Below are positions 8,698 to 26,906 of a DNA stretch of 32,000 bases, one piece after another. A model generated the notes under the pieces. The model searched no databases, had not been told where the DNA came from, and worked only from the letters and a program-made list of their open reading frames with translations. Position 1 is the first letter of the stretch. Each line of letters starts with the position of its first letter. The stretch lies in the NCBI GenBank assembly GCA_964401865.1, contig CAYNZZ010000004.1, positions 60,001-92,000 of the forward strand. The letters are read 5' to 3'. This DNA comes from an uncultured Erysipelotrichaceae bacterium (lineage in GTDB: Bacteria; Bacillota_I; Bacilli_A; Erysipelotrichales; Erysipelotrichaceae). Position numbers and translations under genes: made by a program.

Positions 8698-10305
8698 ATG
8701 AAAACAATTAATGGTGCTATTTTAAAGGAGATGCTTAAAAGCGGTAATGCTAATTTGAGCAATCATAAAAGTTTAATTGACTCATTGAATGTATTTCCGG
8801 TGCCTGATGGTGATACCGGTACAAATATGTATATGACTTTCTCTAACGGCGTTAAAGATGCTTTAGGTGTAGCATCTGATAGTATTTCCGATGTCGCTAA
8901 AGCATTATCTAAAGGTTTGCTTATGGGGGCAAGAGGAAATAGTGGAGTTATCACTTCACAGATTTTTAGAGGATTCTATCAATATGTTGAAGGCAAAGAA
9001 GAAATTACGACCAAAGAGTTAGCTGAAAGTTTTGAAAATGGTGCTAAGGTTGCCTATAAGGCAATTATGAAACCGGTTGAAGGCACTATCTTAACCGTAA
9101 TTAGAGAAGCGAGTTGGTATGCTAACCACTATATGATTGAACATCCAGATATTGATGTTGAAGAATATTTTAGATTGTTGATTGATTTTGCTCAGGATTC
9201 TCTAGATCATACACCAGAGTTACTTCCGGTATTAAAAGAAGTGGGAGTAGTAGATAGTGGCGGAACTGGTTTAGTCAAGATATTTGAGGGTTTTAAAGCT
9301 TATTTAGATGGCAAACCATATGTCATCGAAGAAAATAGTCAAGAAATTACAAGCAAAGCCAAAGAAGCTGAAAATGATGAATTTGGTTACTGTACAGAAT
9401 TTATTTTAAGATTAAATGACGAAAAAAAATTTAAGGAAACTATCTTGCGCAATAAGCTTGCTGAGATTGGAGAATCATTAGTGGTAGTTAAAGATGATGA
9501 TTTAGTTAAGGTTCATGTTCACACATTAAAACCTGGTGATGCTTTAAACATCGGTCAAAGATATGGTGAATTCATTAAGTTAAAGATAGAGAACATGCAG
9601 GAACAACATTCTAATTTATCTGATGAAAAAACCACTAAAGAGAAGAAAAAATATGCGGTTATTGCTGTAGCGGCTGGTAAAGGACTTGAAAAGTTATTCA
9701 AAGATTGTCGTGCTGATATCGTCATTTCTGGTGGACAGACAATGAATCCATCTACTGAAAGTTTTATTGAAGAAATCAAGAGAGTTAATGCTGAACATAT
9801 TATCATTCTTCCAAACAATTCAAATATCATCTTAGCTGCTGAACAGGCTAAGTCGATTATGGAAGACATCGATATAAGAGTATTGCCTACTAAATCAATT
9901 CAAGAGGGTATCAGTGCTTTGTCGATGTATTCTCCAGAAGCTGATATCGAAGAAAATTTAGAAGAGATGAGCGAAGCAGTAAAAAATGTTCAATCAGGCT
10001 CCATCACTTATGCTATTAAAGATACTGTATTTAATGGGGTCGAAGTTAAAGAAGGCGATTTTATCGCGATGACTAATAAAACGATTGTTGCAAGTAATAT
10101 CGATAAATTGACTACGGTCAAAGCCTTATTAGATGAAATGTTTAAAAAAGAAGATGCTGAACTTCTTACATTAATTGCCGGTGAAGATTCTAGTCAAGAC
10201 GAAATAGATGAAATAACTGCTTATATTGAAGAAAATAGTGATTTAGAGGTTGAAATGATTAAGGGCGATCAACCGGTATATTGCTATTTATTCGGTGTTG
10301 AATAA
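8698..10305 (+). CDS. DAK2 domain-containing protein (YloV-like)
   Basis: 535 aa with the N-terminal DAK2 motif (NVFPVPDGDTGTNM...ARGNSGVI) and a C-terminal DegV-associated-like region. It shows conserved synteny with the Asp23 gene. Confidence 0.9.
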   Translation: MKTINGAILKEMLKSGNANLSNHKSLIDSLNVFPVPDGDTGTNMYMTFSNGVKDALGVASDSISDVAKALSKGLLMGARGNSGVITSQIFRGFYQYVEGKEEITTKELAESFENGAKVAYKAIMKPVEGTILTVIREASWYANHYMIEHPDIDVEEYFRLLIDFAQDSLDHTPELLPVLKEVGVVDSGGTGLVKIFEGFKAYLDGKPYVIEENSQEITSKAKEAENDEFGYCTEFILRLNDEKKFKETILRNKLAEIGESLVVVKDDDLVKVHVHTLKPGDALNIGQRYGEFIKLKIENMQEQHSNLSDEKTTKEKKKYAVIAVAAGKGLEKLFKDCRADIVISGGQTMNPSTESFIEEIKRVNAEHIIILPNNSNIILAAEQAKSIMEDIDIRVLPTKSIQEGISALSMYSPEADIEENLEEMSEAVKNVQSGSITYAIKDTVFNGVEVKEGDFIAMTNKTIVASNIDKLTTVKALLDEMFKKEDAELLTLIAGEDSSQDEIDEITAYIEENSDLEVEMIKGDQPVYCYLFGVE

Positions 10306-19111: not shown

Positions 19112-20419
19112 ATGAAAAATCAGAAAATAGAATGTAAATGTATAGATATGACTGTTGACGGCTTTGGGATTTGCAAGTATGATTCCTTAGTTATTTTTGT
19201 CAAACAAATGCTCATTGATGAAGTGGCGATCATCAAGATTATTTCTCATAAGAAGAATTTAGCTTATGGCATTATCGATACTTTAATTGTACCTAGCAAA
19301 TATCGCATTAATAGTCCGTGTAAAGTGGCATATAAATGTGGAGGCTGCGATTTGCGACATGTCGATTATCGTTATGGTCTGAAGCTCAAACATAATATTT
19401 TAGATAATACGATGAATAAAATGGCTAAATTAGGAGTGAAAGTCGAGGATATTGTCGAAAGTCCTTTAAAAGATGGATATCGAAATAAGGTGCAAATACC
19501 GGTTAAAGAAAAGGGTATTGGCTTTTATCGCAAGAACTCCAATGATATCGTGGAGTTTGATAGATGTTTAATTCAAAGTGATGTTGAAAATGATATATTG
19601 TCTAAGCTAAAAGAACTAATTGGTGAATATAAGATAAGCGATTATTTGCGCCATATCATAATTAAAGAAGCATTTGGTACAAAAGAAGTTATGGTGGCAC
19701 TGGTTGTCAAAAGTTTTGATATACCGTCAATCGATGAGATAACAGCCATTATGGTTAAATGTTTCCCAATGATTAAGTCTTTTATTTTGAATTTAAAAAA
19801 GACTGATGATAATGTTGTACTGGGTGATGAAGAAAAGATATTATATGGTTCTTCATATATTATTGATGAATTTGATGGAATTATGGTTGAGATTTCGCTT
19901 AAATCTTTCTATCAGGTTAATCATCAACAAATGATAAACCTTTATAATAAGGTTTTAGAATTAGCCGATGTCGATAAAGATAGTTCAGTATTAGATTTAT
20001 TTTCGGGTATTGGCACTATTTCTTTATTTATGGCAAAACACGCAAATAAGGTTATTGGCGTTGAGATTGTTGAAGATGCGGTGATGAACGCTAAAGAGAA
20101 TGCTAAGCTAAATCATATTGATAATGCAGAGTTTTATCTTGGTGATGCAAAGGATGGATTAAATGAATATTTAGTCGATAAAGATGTAGTTATTGTTGAT
20201 CCGCCTAGAAAAGGTTTAAATGAGCAGATAATTGATAAACTAGCAGAGTTTAATATTCCTAAGATTGTTTATGTTTCTTGTAATCCTGCGACATTAGCCA
20301 GAGATTTAGAACTATTTAAAAAGAAAGGTTACTACTTTGATACAGTATATCCTTTTGATATGTTTCCGCATACAATGCATGTTGAGACGGTCTGCTTGAT
20401 GTCTAGGAAAGAGAAATAA
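19112..20419 (+). CDS. rlmD: 23S rRNA (uracil-5-)-methyltransferase, RlmD/RumA family
   Basis: It has an N-terminal TRAM-like domain and an Fe-S Cys cluster (CKVAYKCGGCDLRH). SAM-methyltransferase motifs are present (LDLFSGIGTISL, VDPPRKG, YVSCNPATLARD). The C-terminus reads FPHTMHVETVCLMSRKEK. Confidence 0.9.
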   Translation: MKNQKIECKCIDMTVDGFGICKYDSLVIFVKQMLIDEVAIIKIISHKKNLAYGIIDTLIVPSKYRINSPCKVAYKCGGCDLRHVDYRYGLKLKHNILDNTMNKMAKLGVKVEDIVESPLKDGYRNKVQIPVKEKGIGFYRKNSNDIVEFDRCLIQSDVENDILSKLKELIGEYKISDYLRHIIIKEAFGTKEVMVALVVKSFDIPSIDEITAIMVKCFPMIKSFILNLKKTDDNVVLGDEEKILYGSSYIIDEFDGIMVEISLKSFYQVNHQQMINLYNKVLELADVDKDSSVLDLFSGIGTISLFMAKHANKVIGVEIVEDAVMNAKENAKLNHIDNAEFYLGDAKDGLNEYLVDKDVVIVDPPRKGLNEQIIDKLAEFNIPKIVYVSCNPATLARDLELFKKKGYYFDTVYPFDMFPHTMHVETVCLMSRKEK

Positions 20420-20520
20420 ATAGCGAAAAGTAGCGTATTTACGGGCTTTTTTGAGATTAGGCAATAGCTCATGAAAGTCCGTAATTCTTATATTGAAACA
20501 TATCTACTGTAAAAATGGTC

Positions 20521-20688
20521 AGATGGTTTAGGCTGTGGATTAGATGTCGTGGGTTGTGGCACTAAGATAGATGTTATCTAGGGTGCAAACTCAATTTGAG
20601 TGAGTGATTTAGATGTTGTCTAATCCGGCAACTCAACCGTTGGCAATAAAGCAGGCAGTGGATTAGATGTTATGGAAGGAGCGAGGAA
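20521..20688 (+). repeat. Five degenerate direct repeats with core AGATGK (20521, 20542, 20569, 20611, 20665); longest shared form GTGGATTAGATGT (20535-20547 and 20658-20670)
   Basis: Core positions were counted base by base. Offsets are 21, 27, 42 and 54 nt, all multiples of 3 and all in the frame of the downstream ORF. In-frame stops sit at 20563, 20605 and 20647, exactly 42 nt apart. Confidence 0.6.
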
Positions 20689-20691
20689 ACA

Positions 20692-21621
20692 ATGAAATGT
20701 GCGTATTGTGGAAAAGAAGCTAAAGGTACAAAAGAGCATATCATTTCCAGTGGTATTCTCGGATTATTCCCTGAGTGCTTTGCGACAATAGATGGTGAAA
20801 GGAAAGTAGTGCATCAAGGTGACCCAATGGTTAAAGATGTGTGCGCCGATTGCAATAACAACAAAATTTCTTATATAGATTCCTACGCCAAGGCATTTAT
20901 AGAAAAGTATTTTATTAGGAAGTACACCAAGGACGAGATTTTGAAAATAGAATACGATTACTCTATGATTCAAAAAATGTGCTTGAAATATGCGTTCAAT
21001 GATTTGCGTTCGAGAAAGAAGGACACTTCATTTTTTAGTGAAGAAATTATTGGTTTTCTTTTAAATGAAAACGAAACAGAGCCATTAAGAAATGTAACAG
21101 TGTTGGCTGGACTTGCAGTAAATACTTCTCCTATGCCAGATTATGTTTTCGGTAATATGAAATTACGTTGGAGTGACTCACCAATGTTTTGCTCGAATAG
21201 TATTGCAATGAATGTTGATTATGATACAGGGAAAATAACATTACGAGATAAGATGGAAGTTCAGGAGTTTAAGAATACCGCATTATCATATGTGTTTAGA
21301 TTTAACAGTCTCCAGATATTGTTACTTTGTTGGGATAAAGAAATCACAGATGCGGATTTAATGGAAAACAAGATTGTTTTAGAGCATCAGTATCCGTATA
21401 AGATACTGGAACCTGTAGGTAATTCTGAGATATCAAGGTGTACTAGTGAGGCTACATATCATCATGAGAAAATAATTGATGTAACATGGGGGCAATCAAT
21501 TATGGATGAAATAAGTTTTATGAGAGGCACATTTACTGAGGAATATCAAAAATATATGTCTTTTGTTGAGTCTGAATGGAGTAAAGAAGAAAAGCATTTA
21601 TCAGAAGAACATCCAAGATAA
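20692..21621 (+). CDS. Hypothetical protein with an N-terminal Cys4 HNH-like (beta-beta-alpha-metal) motif and a ~250-aa unassigned C-terminal domain
   Basis: 309 aa. Motif residues are C3-x2-C6, E15-H16 (KEHIIS), and C51-x2-C54-N55 (VCADCNNNK), which fits the layout of HNH_5-type nucleases. GGAAGGAG/GAGG SD elements precede the ATG. Composition is foreign to the backbone. Confidence 0.7.
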   Translation: MKCAYCGKEAKGTKEHIISSGILGLFPECFATIDGERKVVHQGDPMVKDVCADCNNNKISYIDSYAKAFIEKYFIRKYTKDEILKIEYDYSMIQKMCLKYAFNDLRSRKKDTSFFSEEIIGFLLNENETEPLRNVTVLAGLAVNTSPMPDYVFGNMKLRWSDSPMFCSNSIAMNVDYDTGKITLRDKMEVQEFKNTALSYVFRFNSLQILLLCWDKEITDADLMENKIVLEHQYPYKILEPVGNSEISRCTSEATYHHEKIIDVTWGQSIMDEISFMRGTFTEEYQKYMSFVESEWSKEEKHLSEEHPR

Positions 21622-21672
21622 CTCGCGAAAATTACAAAGCCTATTATAGAAGCAATAGGAGGTTCGAAACAT

Positions 21673-22962
21673 ATGGAATACATAGGAATTGGTATTGTCA
21701 TAGCTGTAGCAATAGCAGCAGGCATTATCATCTATACAAAATTTAATAAGCGTGAAGCTATTCCATCAGGAGATTTGGTATCAGTGTCAACAACCAGCGG
21801 AAAAGATGAGCTTGCTGAGATTCATCAGGAAAATGAACTTATTATTCAGATGGAGATGCTCCCGGCTGAAGCTATTGATGATGAAACTAAGCTGGTAGAA
21901 ATTACCGATAGCAAGGTTCTTGCTCATGTCAATAATCTGGTTCCGGGATTGGCTCAGGCTGGCAATGCAGTAAATAATGCTGCGCAGGCTGTTCAAGCAG
22001 CGAATGGCGAAGTGTTGTATCGTGCGGTTATTCCAGCAGGTGCCAAACTGACAAATTCTAAAGCAATGGAAGGTGCTGTACGCGGTATCTATCATGGTGC
22101 TGATGGAATTAAAGGTCATGCCAATCTTGTGGCTGTAGAAGCACAAAAAGGAACTGCGGTAGTTGCTAATACTGCAGCAGCGGCAATGGGCGTTGCATCA
22201 ATGGTTGTTGGTCAGTATTACATGACTCAGATAAATGCTGAGCTAGGTGAAATCAGTGATGGCATTTCTCAGATACAGGATTTTCAGGATAATGAGTATC
22301 GCAGCAGAGTATTTTCGCTTGTAGCTCACGTAAAAAAGATTGCTGATTTCCAAACTGAAATTTTAGAAAACGATGAGTTACGTCTTTCAAAGATTGCGCA
22401 ACTTGATAGCTTGGAAGAAGAATGTACACAGCTTCTAGGACAAGCAAATCTTACACTCGCAGGTTTCGCAAAGAAAACGGGTCTAGATTATGAAGCTTAT
22501 GAGAAGGCATTAGGTAATGCGCAGAACTGGTTTATGTATCAGAAGTCATTATTGGATGTGCTTTACAAGATATCTGATTTGAGATATACATTGCACTTGG
22601 GTGCTGTATCAAGGGAACAGTGTGTTGCGTTATTACCAACCTACACTAAGCAAGTAAGTGATACTCAAGAACGACTTACAGCATGGCATGATGGAACAAC
22701 TCAACGCTTAGGCATCGAAACTGATGAAATTCGCAGAAAAAGAGCTGGATTTGATAGCGTGATTCATTTCATACCGGGACTGTTTAACGATGATTTCAAT
22801 TTCCGTTCGATAGAAAAGAAAACAGCAAAAATGATTACTGCGCAGGCATCTGGTCATGAATCATTACATGTTGTGGATACATCAGAGCTATATTCAGAAG
22901 ATGTTCAACTAATTTCAAAAGATGGAAAGATTTATTATCTTCCTGAAAGTAAAGCAGAGTAA
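21673..22962 (+). CDS. Hypothetical membrane-anchored protein (N-terminal TM helix, Ala/Gly-rich hydrophobic segment at residues ~161-183, long helical C-terminal region)
   Basis: 429 aa with a TM helix (IGIGIVIAVAIAAGIIIY) and a second hydrophobic stretch (TAVVANTAAAAMGVASMVVGQYY). A TAGGAGG SD lies 10 nt upstream. It is 51 nt downstream of the HNH-like gene. No family was recognised. Confidence 0.7.
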   Translation: MEYIGIGIVIAVAIAAGIIIYTKFNKREAIPSGDLVSVSTTSGKDELAEIHQENELIIQMEMLPAEAIDDETKLVEITDSKVLAHVNNLVPGLAQAGNAVNNAAQAVQAANGEVLYRAVIPAGAKLTNSKAMEGAVRGIYHGADGIKGHANLVAVEAQKGTAVVANTAAAAMGVASMVVGQYYMTQINAELGEISDGISQIQDFQDNEYRSRVFSLVAHVKKIADFQTEILENDELRLSKIAQLDSLEEECTQLLGQANLTLAGFAKKTGLDYEAYEKALGNAQNWFMYQKSLLDVLYKISDLRYTLHLGAVSREQCVALLPTYTKQVSDTQERLTAWHDGTTQRLGIETDEIRRKRAGFDSVIHFIPGLFNDDFNFRSIEKKTAKMITAQASGHESLHVVDTSELYSEDVQLISKDGKIYYLPESKAE

Positions 22963-22970
22963 ATAAAAAC

Positions 22971-23004
22971 AACCCTCTCAACCATCATGGCTGGGAGGGT
23001 TTTG
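22971..23004. terminator. Bidirectional hairpin AACCCTC-N17-GAGGGTT between convergent genes
   Basis: The stem was read directly (22971-22977 / 22995-23001). A U-run follows on the minus-strand reading (GTTGTTTTTATTT) and a weaker TTTG on the plus strand. Confidence 0.6.
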
Positions 23005-23015
23005 TGCGTCTTGTG

Positions 23016-24584
23016 CTATCTTTCTACATCGACCTTGAGTCCGGATTTCAATTCAACGGTGCAGTGGGTTGGCCAGATTATGATTTGTTTAAGCCAGCGT
23101 TTTACAAGGGTTTCATCAAACACTGTAAGGTCGGAAGGCTGGTCTTTAATGAAATCCTGCAATTCGTTTATGCGCTGTAACTGTTCATCACGCTGTACCG
23201 TGTCAATTGATGCTTGCTGACGCTTTTCTCTGAGTGTAAAAATCTGGTCGGCAATCTCGTCGTAGGCTTCTTTGTTGTTGGCCTTTTTAACAAGCTCCTG
23301 CTGAAGTTCCATAAGCTTCTCATCAATACCATCCGTGGTGATTGCTGCAGAAGCTCTGATGACCGAGGCGATGTTTTGCTGTAGCTGTTTCTGGTATTTG
23401 GATTTATCACCAAGGAGCTCATTCAAGGCAATGAGTACGATTTCCTGTAGGTCAAGCTCGTTGATGGTTCTGGCGTGGCATTCAAGGCCAGTAGGTTCTA
23501 GCTTGCTAATGCAGTGCCAGACGATGGACTTGCAGCCGCGATTGTTCCAATGAATTCTTCTGAACATCTCACCGCAGTCGCCACAAATGATAATCTGTGA
23601 GAAGCAGTGGTTGCAACTGTAGCTTCGTTTCTTTCCATTGGCGCTGGTCTTAACCACTCGTCTGCGTACCAATTCTTCCTGCACACGCATGTAAATCTCT
23701 TTTGGGATAATCGCTTCGTGGTTTCCTTCAACATAATACTGCGGAACGATGCCAGTGTTTTTAACTCTTGTCTTGTTAAGAAAATCGGTGGTGTAAGTCT
23801 TTTGAAGAAGGGCATCACCGATGTATTTTTCATTGCGGAGAATCTTGTTGATGGTGCTTGTATGCCAGCGTGGTTTACCTGCGCCGGTAAGAATACCATC
23901 CGCTTCAAGACCTGCAGCAATCTTATCCATACTGTAGCCTTCAAGGTACTCTCGGTAGATGCGCTTTACAACTTCAGCCTGTTCAGGGTCAATGACAAGG
24001 TTGCCATCTTCATCTTTGGTGTAGCCAAGGAAGCGGTTGTGGTTTACCTGCACTTGACCATTCTGGTAGCGGAACTGAAGACCAAGCTTTACGTTCTGGC
24101 TTAAAGACTGTGATTCTTGCTGGGCCAGTGAAGCCATAATCGTAAGAAGAACTTCACCCTTGGCATCCATTGTATTGATTGCCTCTTTTTCAAAGAATAC
24201 AGGGATGTTCTTTTCCTTAAGCTGTCTGATGTATTTCAAGCAGTCTAAGGTGTTTCTGGCAAATCGGCTGATTGATTTTGTGATAATCATGTCGATGGTG
24301 CCAGCTTCGCAATCCTCAATCATTCGGTTGAATTCTTCTCTGTTCTTTGTGTTGGTACCGGAAATACCGTCATCAGCGTATATTCCGACAAATTCCCATT
24401 CAGGGTTCTTCTTAATATATTCTGTGTAGTGCTCAACCTGAGCTTCATAACTTGTAGCCTGCTCATCGCTGTCAGTACTTACTCTACAGTACGCCGCGAC
24501 TCGGAGTTTAGGCTTTGCATCCTGCTTGCGACCGGTATTACCAATTTGTCGCTTGGCAGGAATGACCATTACATTTCCCATCAA
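23016..24584 (-). CDS. Large serine recombinase (intact)
   Basis: 522 aa with the resolvase catalytic region ([21 protein letters not shown]). It also has a recombinase domain, a Cys-rich zinc ribbon ([18 protein letters not shown]...WHC) and a C-terminal coiled coil. Confidence 0.9.
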
Positions 24585-25000
24585 ATAACCTCGCTTTCTA
24601 TAAGGCTGTATAAGTACTCAGCCTGTTTTACTGGATTGTCAAAATACTCTGTGATATCGCTGAAGCGGAAGAGTATTGGAGCCTTTTTCTCAGGTAGTTC
24701 TTTGAATCTGTCGTTGCGGCCAAGTTTGGCTGACCTGCGTCTGATTTCTCTACCTGCAGCAATGAAGGTTTCCTTATCGATGATGGCTGGATAAAAGTCA
24801 TCACCGAGATAATGCTTGTTTTGCATAATTCGCTTGGAACCTGCGTGAAGAGCATTGATTCCAGCTTCCTTAGCAGCATTCGTAAGTGAAAGACCACTAA
24901 GGTAATTCTTGTATAGCTGTCGTACCTTAGCTGCAGTTTCTTCATCGATAACTGCGATTCCATTTTCGATACGATAGCCAAGTGGCGTATGTCCCATCAA
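24581..25000 (-). CDS. Small recombinase-domain accessory protein (no catalytic resolvase domain)
   Basis: 139 aa. [40 protein letters not shown] resembles the recombinase/HTH subdomain of large serine recombinases. ATGA overlaps at both ends indicate translational coupling. Confidence 0.7.
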
Positions 25001-26296
25001 ATCATCTCCTTAAAAGTAAGACCACACTTCATGACAAATCCGACTTCCTTTCTGGAATACACCAGAATGTGGTCTACAAATCTCTCAAATAAATCTTCGC
25101 TGTATTCTTCCAGCATTGAACCACGTTCCGCAAAGTGGAGTAGGCGTTCAGCTTCAAAGAACCTAGAGCTGTCACCGCTCATCGTAGCATTGATAACCTC
25201 GATGTTCTCCCTGTAGGTATTGGCCTGTGCAAGAAGAGCATTTGTTTCGCTGTTGTACAATGCTTGGTCGATGTAGCCTTGCGCCATCAGTCTGGTTAAA
25301 GTTTCTCGCTGTTCCGTATTCTGCTCCAGAAGTCGTTCTAAGTGCTGAATTCTTACAAGGTTCTCATCACTGGAATTGCTCTGGAGGGCAGCAGCATAAG
25401 GTTTCAAGACTAGCTTGTGGCTGTAGATTAGTTTGTTAAGAACGGTAACGAAAGCTACCTTTAAATCTTCATCCTTAAGAAATAGCATCGAGCATTTTGT
25501 TTTATCTGCCAGATGGGTATTGTAGCACCAAGCTACGTATTTGCCATAGGTACTGGAGTGCATCCTTCTCCTGAAGGTATCGCCACATTCGTCGCAGATG
25601 ATTTTTCCGGAGAAGGCATAACGCTGCTGGTACTTATTGCTTTCACGCTGGATACCTTTTTCAGCAGCGCGTTGGGTTACCAAAAGTCCTGCTGCTTCAA
25701 AATCTTCTTTACTGATAATGGCTTCGTGATGGTCGGCAACATAATACATATCAAGTTCACGTTTGTTGTATGTCTGTTGAAAGAACCATCTGTAAAGGTC
25801 TTCTGGAAGATAACGTCGCCGGTATATTTCTCATTGGCAAGAATGCCTCTAATACTTGTTGATGTCCATTTACTACCACGCTCGGTAGGGGCACCTTCAT
25901 CCTCAAGGGCTCTTGCGATAGCATCCGTACCTTTACCGGAAAGAACATCAACAAAGATATGTTTTACAACTTCAGCCTGCTCAGGAATAACGCGAAGTGT
26001 GCGTCCATCCCAGCGGTATCTGTAAGGAGCGTAGCTAAGTTTGAAGGTTCCATTCTGGAATCGCTTCTTGATTGACCACTTGCTGTTTTCAGAAATAGAA
26101 GTGGATTCACCTTCGGCCATTGAGCTTAGGATTGTCAGGAATAGTTCGTTTTCCATTGAGCCGGTGTTTATGTTTTCTTTTTCAAAGTAAATAGGAACAT
26201 CCAGCTACTGCAGCTTTCTGACAAGCTCCAAGCAGTCAGTTGTGTTTCTTGAGAATTGGCTGATGGATTTTGTAATGATGAAGTCTATCTTCTTCA
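24997..26296 (-). pseudogene. Second large serine recombinase, inactivated: 5' truncation (catalytic Ser region missing), in-frame TAG at 26205-26207, and a frameshift near 25750
   Basis: My translation of the minus strand upstream of 26156 gives [53 protein letters not shown]. This is collinear with [42 protein letters not shown] in the intact paralogue. The 159-aa and 250-aa ORFs continue the alignment in different frames. Confidence 0.85.
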
Positions 26297-26304
26297 AGGT
26301 GTAG

Positions 26305-26637
26305 TTTTACAAATATTATAGTGGGCTTGGGATTGAGAGAAATGACATAGAGGGTGTTCTTGAATTGAACCTAGAGCAGCATAGCTATGATATTTTGATC
26401 TATGACAATGTTCCGGGAGGAGCAGGTCATGTTAAGAGACTGGTTGAGAAGAACGCTGTAATAACATCTTTAAATGCAGCATATGTGAAAGTATCACAAC
26501 AATGTTGCGATAAAAACACTTCTTGCTATAACTGCCTTAGAAACTATTGCAACCAAGCAAATCACAGTAAATTAAAACGCAAGTATGCTCGTGATTTCAT
26601 TGAAAGTCTATTGAGACAAATAGGTGTTAGACCTTAA
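26305..26637 (+). pseudogene. C-terminal remnant of a DUF1998/MZB (MrfA-type zinc-binding) domain protein, the type associated with DEAD/DEAH helicases
   Basis: The frame opens at 26305 right after the truncated recombinase. The region ILIYDNVPGGAGHVKRL...CCDKNTSCYNCLRNYCNQANHSKL matches the DUF1998 C-terminal Cys4 module. There is no plausible N-terminus, SD or helicase body. Confidence 0.65.
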
Positions 26638-26639
26638 AA

Positions 26640-26906
26640 CAGTCTTTATAGGTATAAGGGAGAGCGTGTTTTGGAAGCAAAATGTATTATTCAGCTTCTT
26701 GTATCTGATGATGTCGCCTCATGCAGAAATATATGTGCATGAAGATGACAGTACAAAGCAGATATATGGATTTATCGGATTGGATAATGACTATATTGCG
26801 GGTGTTTTTTGCAAAAGAAACAATGCAATCCGGGAGAAAAGGAATTTTTAATGGTTTGGAATCATTAACTTCCAATTTGTGTGGGAGAAACACAGAATCT
26901 AGATAA
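26640..26906 (+). pseudogene. GNAT acetyltransferase remnant (frameshifted and truncated)
   Basis: Frame 1 reads AEIYVHEDDSTKQIYGFIGLDNDYIAGVF. A second frame continues FFAKETMQSGRKGIFNGL, which resembles the GNAT motif A region. Neither frame gives a complete domain. Confidence 0.4.

Follow-up and report, generated by a model that had tools for sequence, protein, structure and literature searches.

In P2-type defense hotspots, conserved flanks enclose rapidly exchanged and mutually exclusive cargo, often a single gene, and a single DUF4238 protein from such a hotspot guards E. coli against T7 (2022, PMC9122126). Elements targeting rumA, also named rlmD, and including integrative and conjugative elements (ICEs) such as CTn5 of C. 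difficile, employ large serine integrases, insert in the 3' end of rumA and replace that end; coding sequences located between recombinase triplets and the target gene have also been recorded (Ambroset et al. 2016, PMC4701971). Small serine recombinases have been found to mark defense loci, the RADS (Andersen et al. 2026, PMC13552941). Here, a locus with likeness to each of these is described in a 32,000-nucleotide (nt) stretch of DNA from an uncultured Erysipelotrichaceae bacterium (contig CAYNZZ010000004.1, positions 60,001 to 92,000), hereafter the window. The locus comprises two open reading frames (ORFs), A and B, of 309 and 429 amino acids (aa), which lie on the same strand between rlmD and convergent serine recombinase genes.

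The locus belongs with the mobile-element defense hotspots, a known kind, and A and B are members of two candidate uncharacterized families. An earlier note on the window had paired A and B as one two-gene sensor/effector cassette. This part of its reading falls, for the homologs are not syntenic in other genomes; we consider it probable that A and B act independently rather than as a dedicated system, and both are plausible stand-alone defense candidates. The position occupied by A is an exchangeable slot that is filled by unrelated genes in related elements. The features of the locus and its setting, with the evidence in brackets, are as follows (SD, Shine-Dalgarno sequence).

19112..20419, + strand, rlmD (rumA), gene of the 23S rRNA m5U methyltransferase and integration target (Pfam PF05958)
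20420..20681, + strand, leader with GGATTAGATGT-type direct repeats, left flank of the slot (repeat mapping, DNA alignment)
20682..21622, + strand, exchangeable cassette, consisting of the SD and ORF A, 20692-21621 (homology break points)
21623..21672, + strand, linker, TCGCGAAAATTACAAAGCC...AGGAGG, right flank of the slot, which holds the SD of B (conservation)
21673..22962, + strand, ORF B, predicted to be N-terminally membrane-anchored and mostly helical (family alignment, AlphaFold2)
22973..23003, no strand assigned, terminator hairpin between the convergent B and recombinase genes (fold energy)
23016..24584, - strand, intact large serine recombinase, 522 aa (Resolvase, Recombinase and Zn_ribbon_recom domains, Pfam)
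24581..26156, - strand, decayed serine recombinase genes, fragments of 139, 250 and 159 aa (Pfam)
26365..26637, + strand, fragment of an MrfA Zn-binding (MZB, formerly DUF1998) gene, helicase-associated (Pfam PF09369)

Synteny of A and B

A and B are real genes, each with hundreds of full-length homologs. They are separated by 51 nt, and each is preceded by a strong SD of its own (GGAAGGAG before the ATG of A, AGGAGG before B), so that the gene layout given in the earlier note, coordinates and SDs included, is confirmed throughout. The same is true of the single leader and single terminator ascribed to both genes. The leader, 272 nt long from the rlmD stop to A, contains four GGATTAGATGT-type repeats (20530-20552, 20568-20594, 20610-20636 and 20653-20675), and the hairpin 3' of B (about 22973-22999, followed by UUUU) has a folding energy of -20.9 kcal/mol (z = -2.9); a simple terminator scan overlooked it because of its long loop. 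The two genes are adjacent and probably co-transcribed. The single operon proposed for them is probable as far as transcription is concerned, but co-transcription belongs to the slot rather than to this particular pair.

For the A family, one genome per species was scanned with the A alignment, which yielded 41 loci, and in none of these (0/41) was a relative of B found within 8 kb of A, either by tblastn or with a profile built from the deep B alignment. For the B family, 107 loci were collected from metagenomes, viral contigs, plasmids and genomes, and 93 of them had enough upstream sequence. The gene abutting B upstream was a member of the A family in 7 of the 93, another co-oriented gene in 52 and rlmD in 4, while the remaining 30 had none. 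Adjacent co-occurrence of the two families across diverse genomes was thus not found in the 41 A loci and 93 B loci, an outcome that the earlier note itself had named as refuting its proposal. Near-identical alleles of B (96-99%) are located behind A, behind a 412-aa protein or behind a DUF4238 protein.

The seven A-B loci (the window, L051, L052, L055 and L142-144) represent one element lineage with DNA identity of at least 92%. Adjacency, the common leader and terminator and these recurrences are what can be cited for a dedicated abortive-infection pair, in which an HNH nuclease would work with a specific membrane partner. However, every recurrence is confined to that one lineage, with none beyond it, and in three of the recurrences, those of Veillonella caviae (L142-L144, locus coordinates 9018-9947), A is a pseudogene with two in-frame nonsense codons at positions 42 and 94, both of which are Gln in the A protein of the window, whereas B next to it is intact and 94% identical. 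We therefore regard a dedicated pair as very improbable. The 90%-identity cluster of A also holds many shortened members (48-272 aa). A general caution follows for the annotation of such loci, namely that operon-like adjacency within a hotspot does not equal a system.

The exchangeable slot and its occupants

The locus has a recurrent order, in which rlmD is followed by a repeat leader of about 270 nt, a variable gene, the linker, B, the terminator and a convergent serine recombinase, and this rlmD-to-recombinase layout is shared by hosts with rlmD proteins as little as 30-41% identical to that of the window. When the window is aligned with loci carrying DUF4238 genes (L045, L048) or a gene for a 412-aa protein (L042), the homology stops at 20681 and restarts at 21623, while the flanks of the slot are 92-96% identical between the window and the alternative-cargo loci (95-96% for the leader alone). 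The swapped unit is exactly the SD, the ORF and its stop. In L042, where B is 99% identical, the alignment with the window runs from 21623, just past the stop of A, through the terminator, whose hairpin sequence is kept, into the 3' end of the recombinase gene, and the unrelated 412-aa gene lies upstream of the alignment start. In comparison with three other cargo types, unrelated and mutually exclusive cargo is thus found at identical boundaries. The exchange of cargo would proceed by homologous recombination in the conserved slot flanks.

By locus count, the occupants of the slot are RES-domain genes (21), DUF4238 genes (5), the gene of the 412-aa protein (5) and that of a 282-aa protein (5), while an AbiJ_NTD3 protein and other singleton occupants are each found in one locus. 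In total, at least eight unrelated clusters of upstream genes precede B, or none does; empty slots are also seen, in which B follows either the leader and linker or the rlmD stop and linker. RES, AbiJ-N-terminal and TOTE-type domains are typical of conflict systems. The occupants, A among them, are interchangeable and probably anti-phage genes, and a validated defense cargo is represented among them at the family level only, by DUF4238 in five slot loci, not by the same protein.

The slot resembles the P2-type hotspots in its conserved flanks and its rapidly exchanged, exclusive and often single-gene cargo, and shares with them the DUF4238 family, which was validated there as a one-protein anti-T7 system (PMC9122126). 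It differs from them in that the host is a serine-recombinase integrative element located at rlmD, in Bacillota and Negativicutes, and in that exactly one gene is held per slot, within an operon-like frame with a conserved linker and B downstream. We describe the slot as a one-gene defense hotspot. The serine-recombinase elements that have it at their rlmD-proximal end move among Clostridia, Enterococcus, Aerococcaceae and Veillonella. The fixed flanks of the slot could be used as bait for new single-gene immune proteins from gut Bacillota.

Several further observations concern the slot. Two to four copies of the GGATTAGATGT-type repeats are present upstream of it in many hosts (L001, L003-L005, L048, L065, L073, L113 and L129), empty-slot loci included, and may act as an operator, a promoter element or a recombinase site. 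An ORF with TOTE-type primase and helicase domains (L079:31-1563) has the same 3' end as the RES-domain slot genes and appears to be a chimera produced by recombination at the slot. In E. cecorum (L045/L046, 5386-21296), a composite island 3' of rlmD contains a decayed recombinase gene, a DUF4238 gene with B, a second recombinase fragment, a Type I restriction-modification (R-M) system and the start of Hachiman (HamA).

Proteins A and B

Homologs of A number 333, all labelled hypothetical. In 45 of them, 54-96% identical, there is no variation at C3, C6, E15, H16, C51, C54 or D63, and N55 is kept in at least 90%, so that a His, an Asn, an acidic or Asn metal ligand and two CxxC zinc knuckles, the elements of an HNH motif, are all present in A. 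The catalytic roles of these residues are presumed from the HNH motif. HNH_5 (PF14279) is the sole consistent Pfam match, found in 42 of the 45 members (best E = 4.5e-6); for A of the window itself the match covers residues 3-18 only and scores 14.7 bits, below the Pfam cut-off of 27.5. One family member (P0095) carries a precomputed PF14279 annotation, and a plasmid gene labelled as an HNH endonuclease is among the distant matches of the N-terminal part. The AlphaFold2 model has a mean predicted local distance difference test score (pLDDT) of 92.4, with strands at 12-16 and 46-51 and a helix at 52-58. The earlier note had described A as an HNH-like protein with a Zn finger, which the family as a whole bears out.

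In its first ~65 residues, with the order CxxC...EH...CxxC-N...D and a predicted beta-beta-alpha arrangement, A resembles the HNH_5 and other His-Me finger nucleases (Jablonska et al. 2017, PMC5714182); it differs from them in scoring below the Pfam threshold and in a C-terminal domain of about 240 aa for which no Pfam, PDB or named relative was found. At E <= 0.001, Foldseek matched the model to none of the solved structures, PDB searches by sequence and by profile gave nothing meaningful, and the only BFVD match of the model is an uncharacterized phage protein. By sequence, A can be placed among the HNH_5-like His-Me finger proteins, and its ~240-aa C-terminal domain has no match among solved structures. 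Its Zn-stabilized HNH module would cut nucleic acid, with the C-terminal domain controlling or targeting the activity, and A alone would be a candidate nuclease-type anti-phage or anti-plasmid protein, similar to those of abortive infection.

Outside the lineage of the window, the immediate upstream neighbors of A are AbiH (3 loci), an AAA_2 ATPase (4) and YhcG/DUF1016 (2), and also TIR, phage tail and rlmD genes. Within 3.5 kb of A relatives, PADLOC identifies AbiH, DolB, Type IIG R-M, PDC-S02, PDC-S05 and DpdF, and Pfam identifies recombinases, type IV secretion system (T4SS) coupling proteins, relaxases and phage tail genes. Because of this mixture of neighbors, A is best seen as mobile-element cargo in defense company that has no fixed partner, an uncharacterized family of HNH plus an unknown domain located beside AbiH, TIR and Dodola genes. 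As a separate observation, several A-family genes that lack B are followed, 24-76 nt downstream, by genes of small proteins (141-164 aa) with a hydrophobic segment (L001:8951-9430, L003:7825-8319, L004:1865-2311 and L008:8978-9403), which in L003 and L004 stand after the conserved linker.

Neither protein could be assigned to a named system, in agreement with the earlier note: searches of PADLOC-DB v2, Pfam, NCBIfam and PHROGs gave no significant match for A or B, the sub-threshold HNH_5 being the sole match of A. The PADLOC library (v2.0.0) dates from 2023; at E <= 1, it contained no match for A, B, the E. cecorum homolog of B, the DUF4238 partner or the 412-aa partner.

The B family is large, with at least 1649 homologs in a word-indexed search, all labelled hypothetical, and 750 clusters at 50% identity in an exhaustive search. 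In an alignment of 51 sequences (31-86% identity), the N-terminus has a hydrophobic helix with basic residues after it, long helices are predicted, and the motifs LY.AIIP.GA.L, VAS.VVGQYYM.QIN, LLGQANL and, at the C-terminus, GK.YYLP are conserved. The description of B in the earlier note as membrane-anchored and helical agrees in both respects with these predictions, but the AlphaFold2 model is of low confidence (pLDDT 50). Sequence and profile searches revealed no Pfam family common to the members and no relative in PADLOC or PDB. B proteins are often named "topoisomerase IV" at NCBI (L136 from the Lactococcus plasmid pLLUC7005C, P0407, P0408, P0417, P0422, P0426, P0467, P0473 and P0490); the label lacks Pfam, PDB or profile support and looks like a propagated misannotation.

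Six distant members of the family, ~35-50% identical to B in the family alignment, were inspected, and all six lie 4-48 nt behind a co-oriented defense-type gene. In L145 and L147, this is the gene of a Macro-domain protein of ~335 aa, located 4 nt before B and just after BREX PglZ and BrxL; in L146 and L148, it is a GmrSD gene; in L149, it encodes a NOV_C protein of 1528 aa and is located beside Gabija-like genes; and in L150, it is a Type I HsdR gene, followed by Mrr. Recombinase genes near these six loci are variable, with none annotated within 7 kb in three of them and one intact co-oriented gene, one fragment and one tyrosine-integrase fragment in the others. On account of these six loci, B can be described as a family-wide resident of defense islands, located at the 3' end of other genes. 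The earlier view of the locus as mobile-element cargo in a defense-type neighborhood is thus sustained, by the anatomy of the element and by the defense genes that both families adjoin elsewhere.

B also occurs alone, on 70 Enterococcus plasmids and one Lactococcus plasmid, amid toxin-antitoxin, Fic, R-M and small-recombinase genes. On E. faecalis plasmids, it lies ~4 kb from a small serine recombinase gene, amid toxin-antitoxin and Fic genes, a setting similar to that of RADS (PMC13552941). The RADS screen, in contrast, was domain-based and mentions neither A nor B, and the recombinases of the window are of the large integrase type. B thus represents a large family without a Pfam model, which trails defense genes and is invisible to domain-based defense screens. 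Large sigma-factor-like proteins encoded downstream of B (in an E. faecalis plasmid and in Isachenkonia) were considered as a conserved partner and rejected, as they share just a helix-turn-helix motif of 34 residues.

The position of B suggests the main alternative, in which it is the constant subunit, for example a membrane effector or anchor, of modular pairs formed with whichever first gene lies upstream; A with B would then be one working combination among many. In 59 of the 93 clade loci and in 6 of the 6 distant loci, B is second and co-oriented, 4-62 nt downstream of another gene; the linker abuts the upstream stop and has the potential to occlude the SD, which is free where there is no upstream ORF; and one leader and one terminator serve both genes. 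However, B is widespread as a solitary and intact gene, both on the 70 Enterococcus plasmids and directly after rlmD, and the genes upstream of it include parts of complete self-sufficient systems (Type I HsdR, GmrSD) as well as DUF4238, which works alone. The A family is almost never found with B, B outlives the inactivation of A, and in L044 A is kept while B is deleted. Modular pairing is, on balance, rather unlikely. A further reading is, in our opinion, also unlikely: B would be a universal, translationally coupled downstream companion of defense genes that cooperates with HNH, RES, DUF4238, Macro, GmrSD, NOV_C and HsdR proteins. In that case, B could be a shared membrane effector, or a back-up trigger that responds when the upstream defense is engaged or inhibited, and the linker would be the coupling device.

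Another alternative places both genes outside defense, with A as a selfish homing-type or DNA-processing HNH enzyme and B serving the life cycle of the element in maintenance, exclusion or regulation. The HNH families include homing endonucleases (PMC5714182), at the ends of elements A has recombinases, T4SS coupling proteins and phage tail genes as neighbors, and B is tightly linked to the recombinase in the clade of the window. Against this, A lies outside any intron, intein or conserved target gene, and its slot alternates with RES, DUF4238 and AbiJ-type genes, while distant B genes are found in chromosomal BREX, Gabija and R-M islands, in three of the six cases with no recombinase annotated within 7 kb. 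A role for both genes outside defense is improbable. Under the favored reading of A and B as independent proteins, B would be an N-terminally anchored, probably cytoplasmic helical protein, and our best guess is an autonomous membrane-associated defense or exclusion factor.

The host element, its leader and the linker

The region of about 20357-26650 is the decayed rlmD-proximal end of a serine-recombinase integrative element that targets rumA/rlmD. DNA alignments with loci whose hosts carry an unrelated rlmD begin within that gene, at 20357-20381. The last ~40-60 nt of rlmD and the DNA beyond are 72-99% conserved across these hosts even though the proteins share just 30-41% identity, and the 3' end of the gene is therefore considered to be supplied by the element. 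One intact recombinase gene, of 522 aa, combines the Resolvase, Recombinase and Zn-ribbon domains expected of a large serine recombinase, whereas the fragments of 139, 250 and 159 aa keep Recombinase or Zn-ribbon domains only and lack the catalytic Resolvase domain. Recombinase homologs are convergent to B in at least 22 loci. These Pfam domains agree with the layout in the earlier note, with rlmD upstream and serine recombinases convergent downstream.

This anatomy resembles that of the rumA/rlmD-targeting ICEs in the insertion in and replacement of the 3' end, the large serine recombinases and the intervening genes (PMC4701971). The differences are that no conjugation or mobilization module was found in the window by a Pfam scan and that two of the three recombinases are decayed. 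The published survey assigns rumA to single serine integrases and other target genes to triplets; in the window, by contrast, a decayed triplet is convergent to rlmD. Neither the terminal slot nor B appears in that survey (PMC4701971). The element is regarded as a decayed remnant because it has no such module in the window and because host-type genes (GNAT, amidohydrolase, PRTase; Pfam) begin at about 27200. GC content is 0.36-0.455 over 20.5-26.5 kb compared with about 0.30-0.33 in the flanks, in keeping with the compositionally foreign DNA of the earlier note. The DUF1998-type gene remnant it had placed a few kb away is likewise present: a 90-aa ORF at the far edge of the island matches the last 50 of the 80 positions of the MrfA Zn-binding profile (E = 1e-8) and is a relic of a helicase-associated gene.

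A block of 2.75 kb (~20357-23116) begins in the 3' end of rlmD, covers the leader, A, the linker, B and the terminator, and stops within the 3' end of the recombinase gene, of which it takes in the final ~100 nt. It is 91-99% identical in L055 and L142 despite unrelated rlmD genes, and may be a cis-mobilizable remnant. Neither the junctions near 20357-20381 and 23102-23116 nor other positions yielded a common att core; the direct repeats of serine integrases can be only 2 bp (PMC4701971).

A promoter scan of the leader gave matches at chance level, and Rfam contained no known RNA family for the leader or the linker at E <= 1. B has no recognizable promoter signal of its own and would be expressed from upstream transcription. 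A duplicated linker or att site directly after the rlmD stop (ATAGCGAAAAGTA...) was considered and rejected, as the equivalent position elsewhere is unlike the linker.

Over the 110 nt before B, nearly all loci sampled from the clade of the window share a conserved linker of ~50 nt, TTCGC(G/A)AAA(A/T)TTACAAAGCC...AGGAGG, whose conserved form opens with the palindrome TTCGCGAA, the version in the window being CTCGCGAA. The stop codons of all upstream genes lie 0-12 nt in front of it. Occlusion of the SD by folding is possible in most linker variants, while those with no abutting upstream ORF fold otherwise, leaving the SD free. These differences hint that the expression of B may involve translational coupling across a linker hairpin, but no more than that: although the helix is paired in 82% of cells, its covariation is weak, no better than in shuffles, and pairing is also possible in a slid register. 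The SD-occluding hairpin was therefore not accepted as a proven structure.

The linker precedes B in L042-L131 and non-B genes in L002, L003 and L004, three A-family loci that have the repeat leader too. The 339-aa protein encoded after the linker in L002 was rejected as a distant B, with hhalign probabilities of 0.07 and 0.68 (on a scale of 0-100) for the shallow and deep B profiles, respectively. In L044, in which A is kept and B is deleted, the linker is joined to the 3' end of the recombinase gene.

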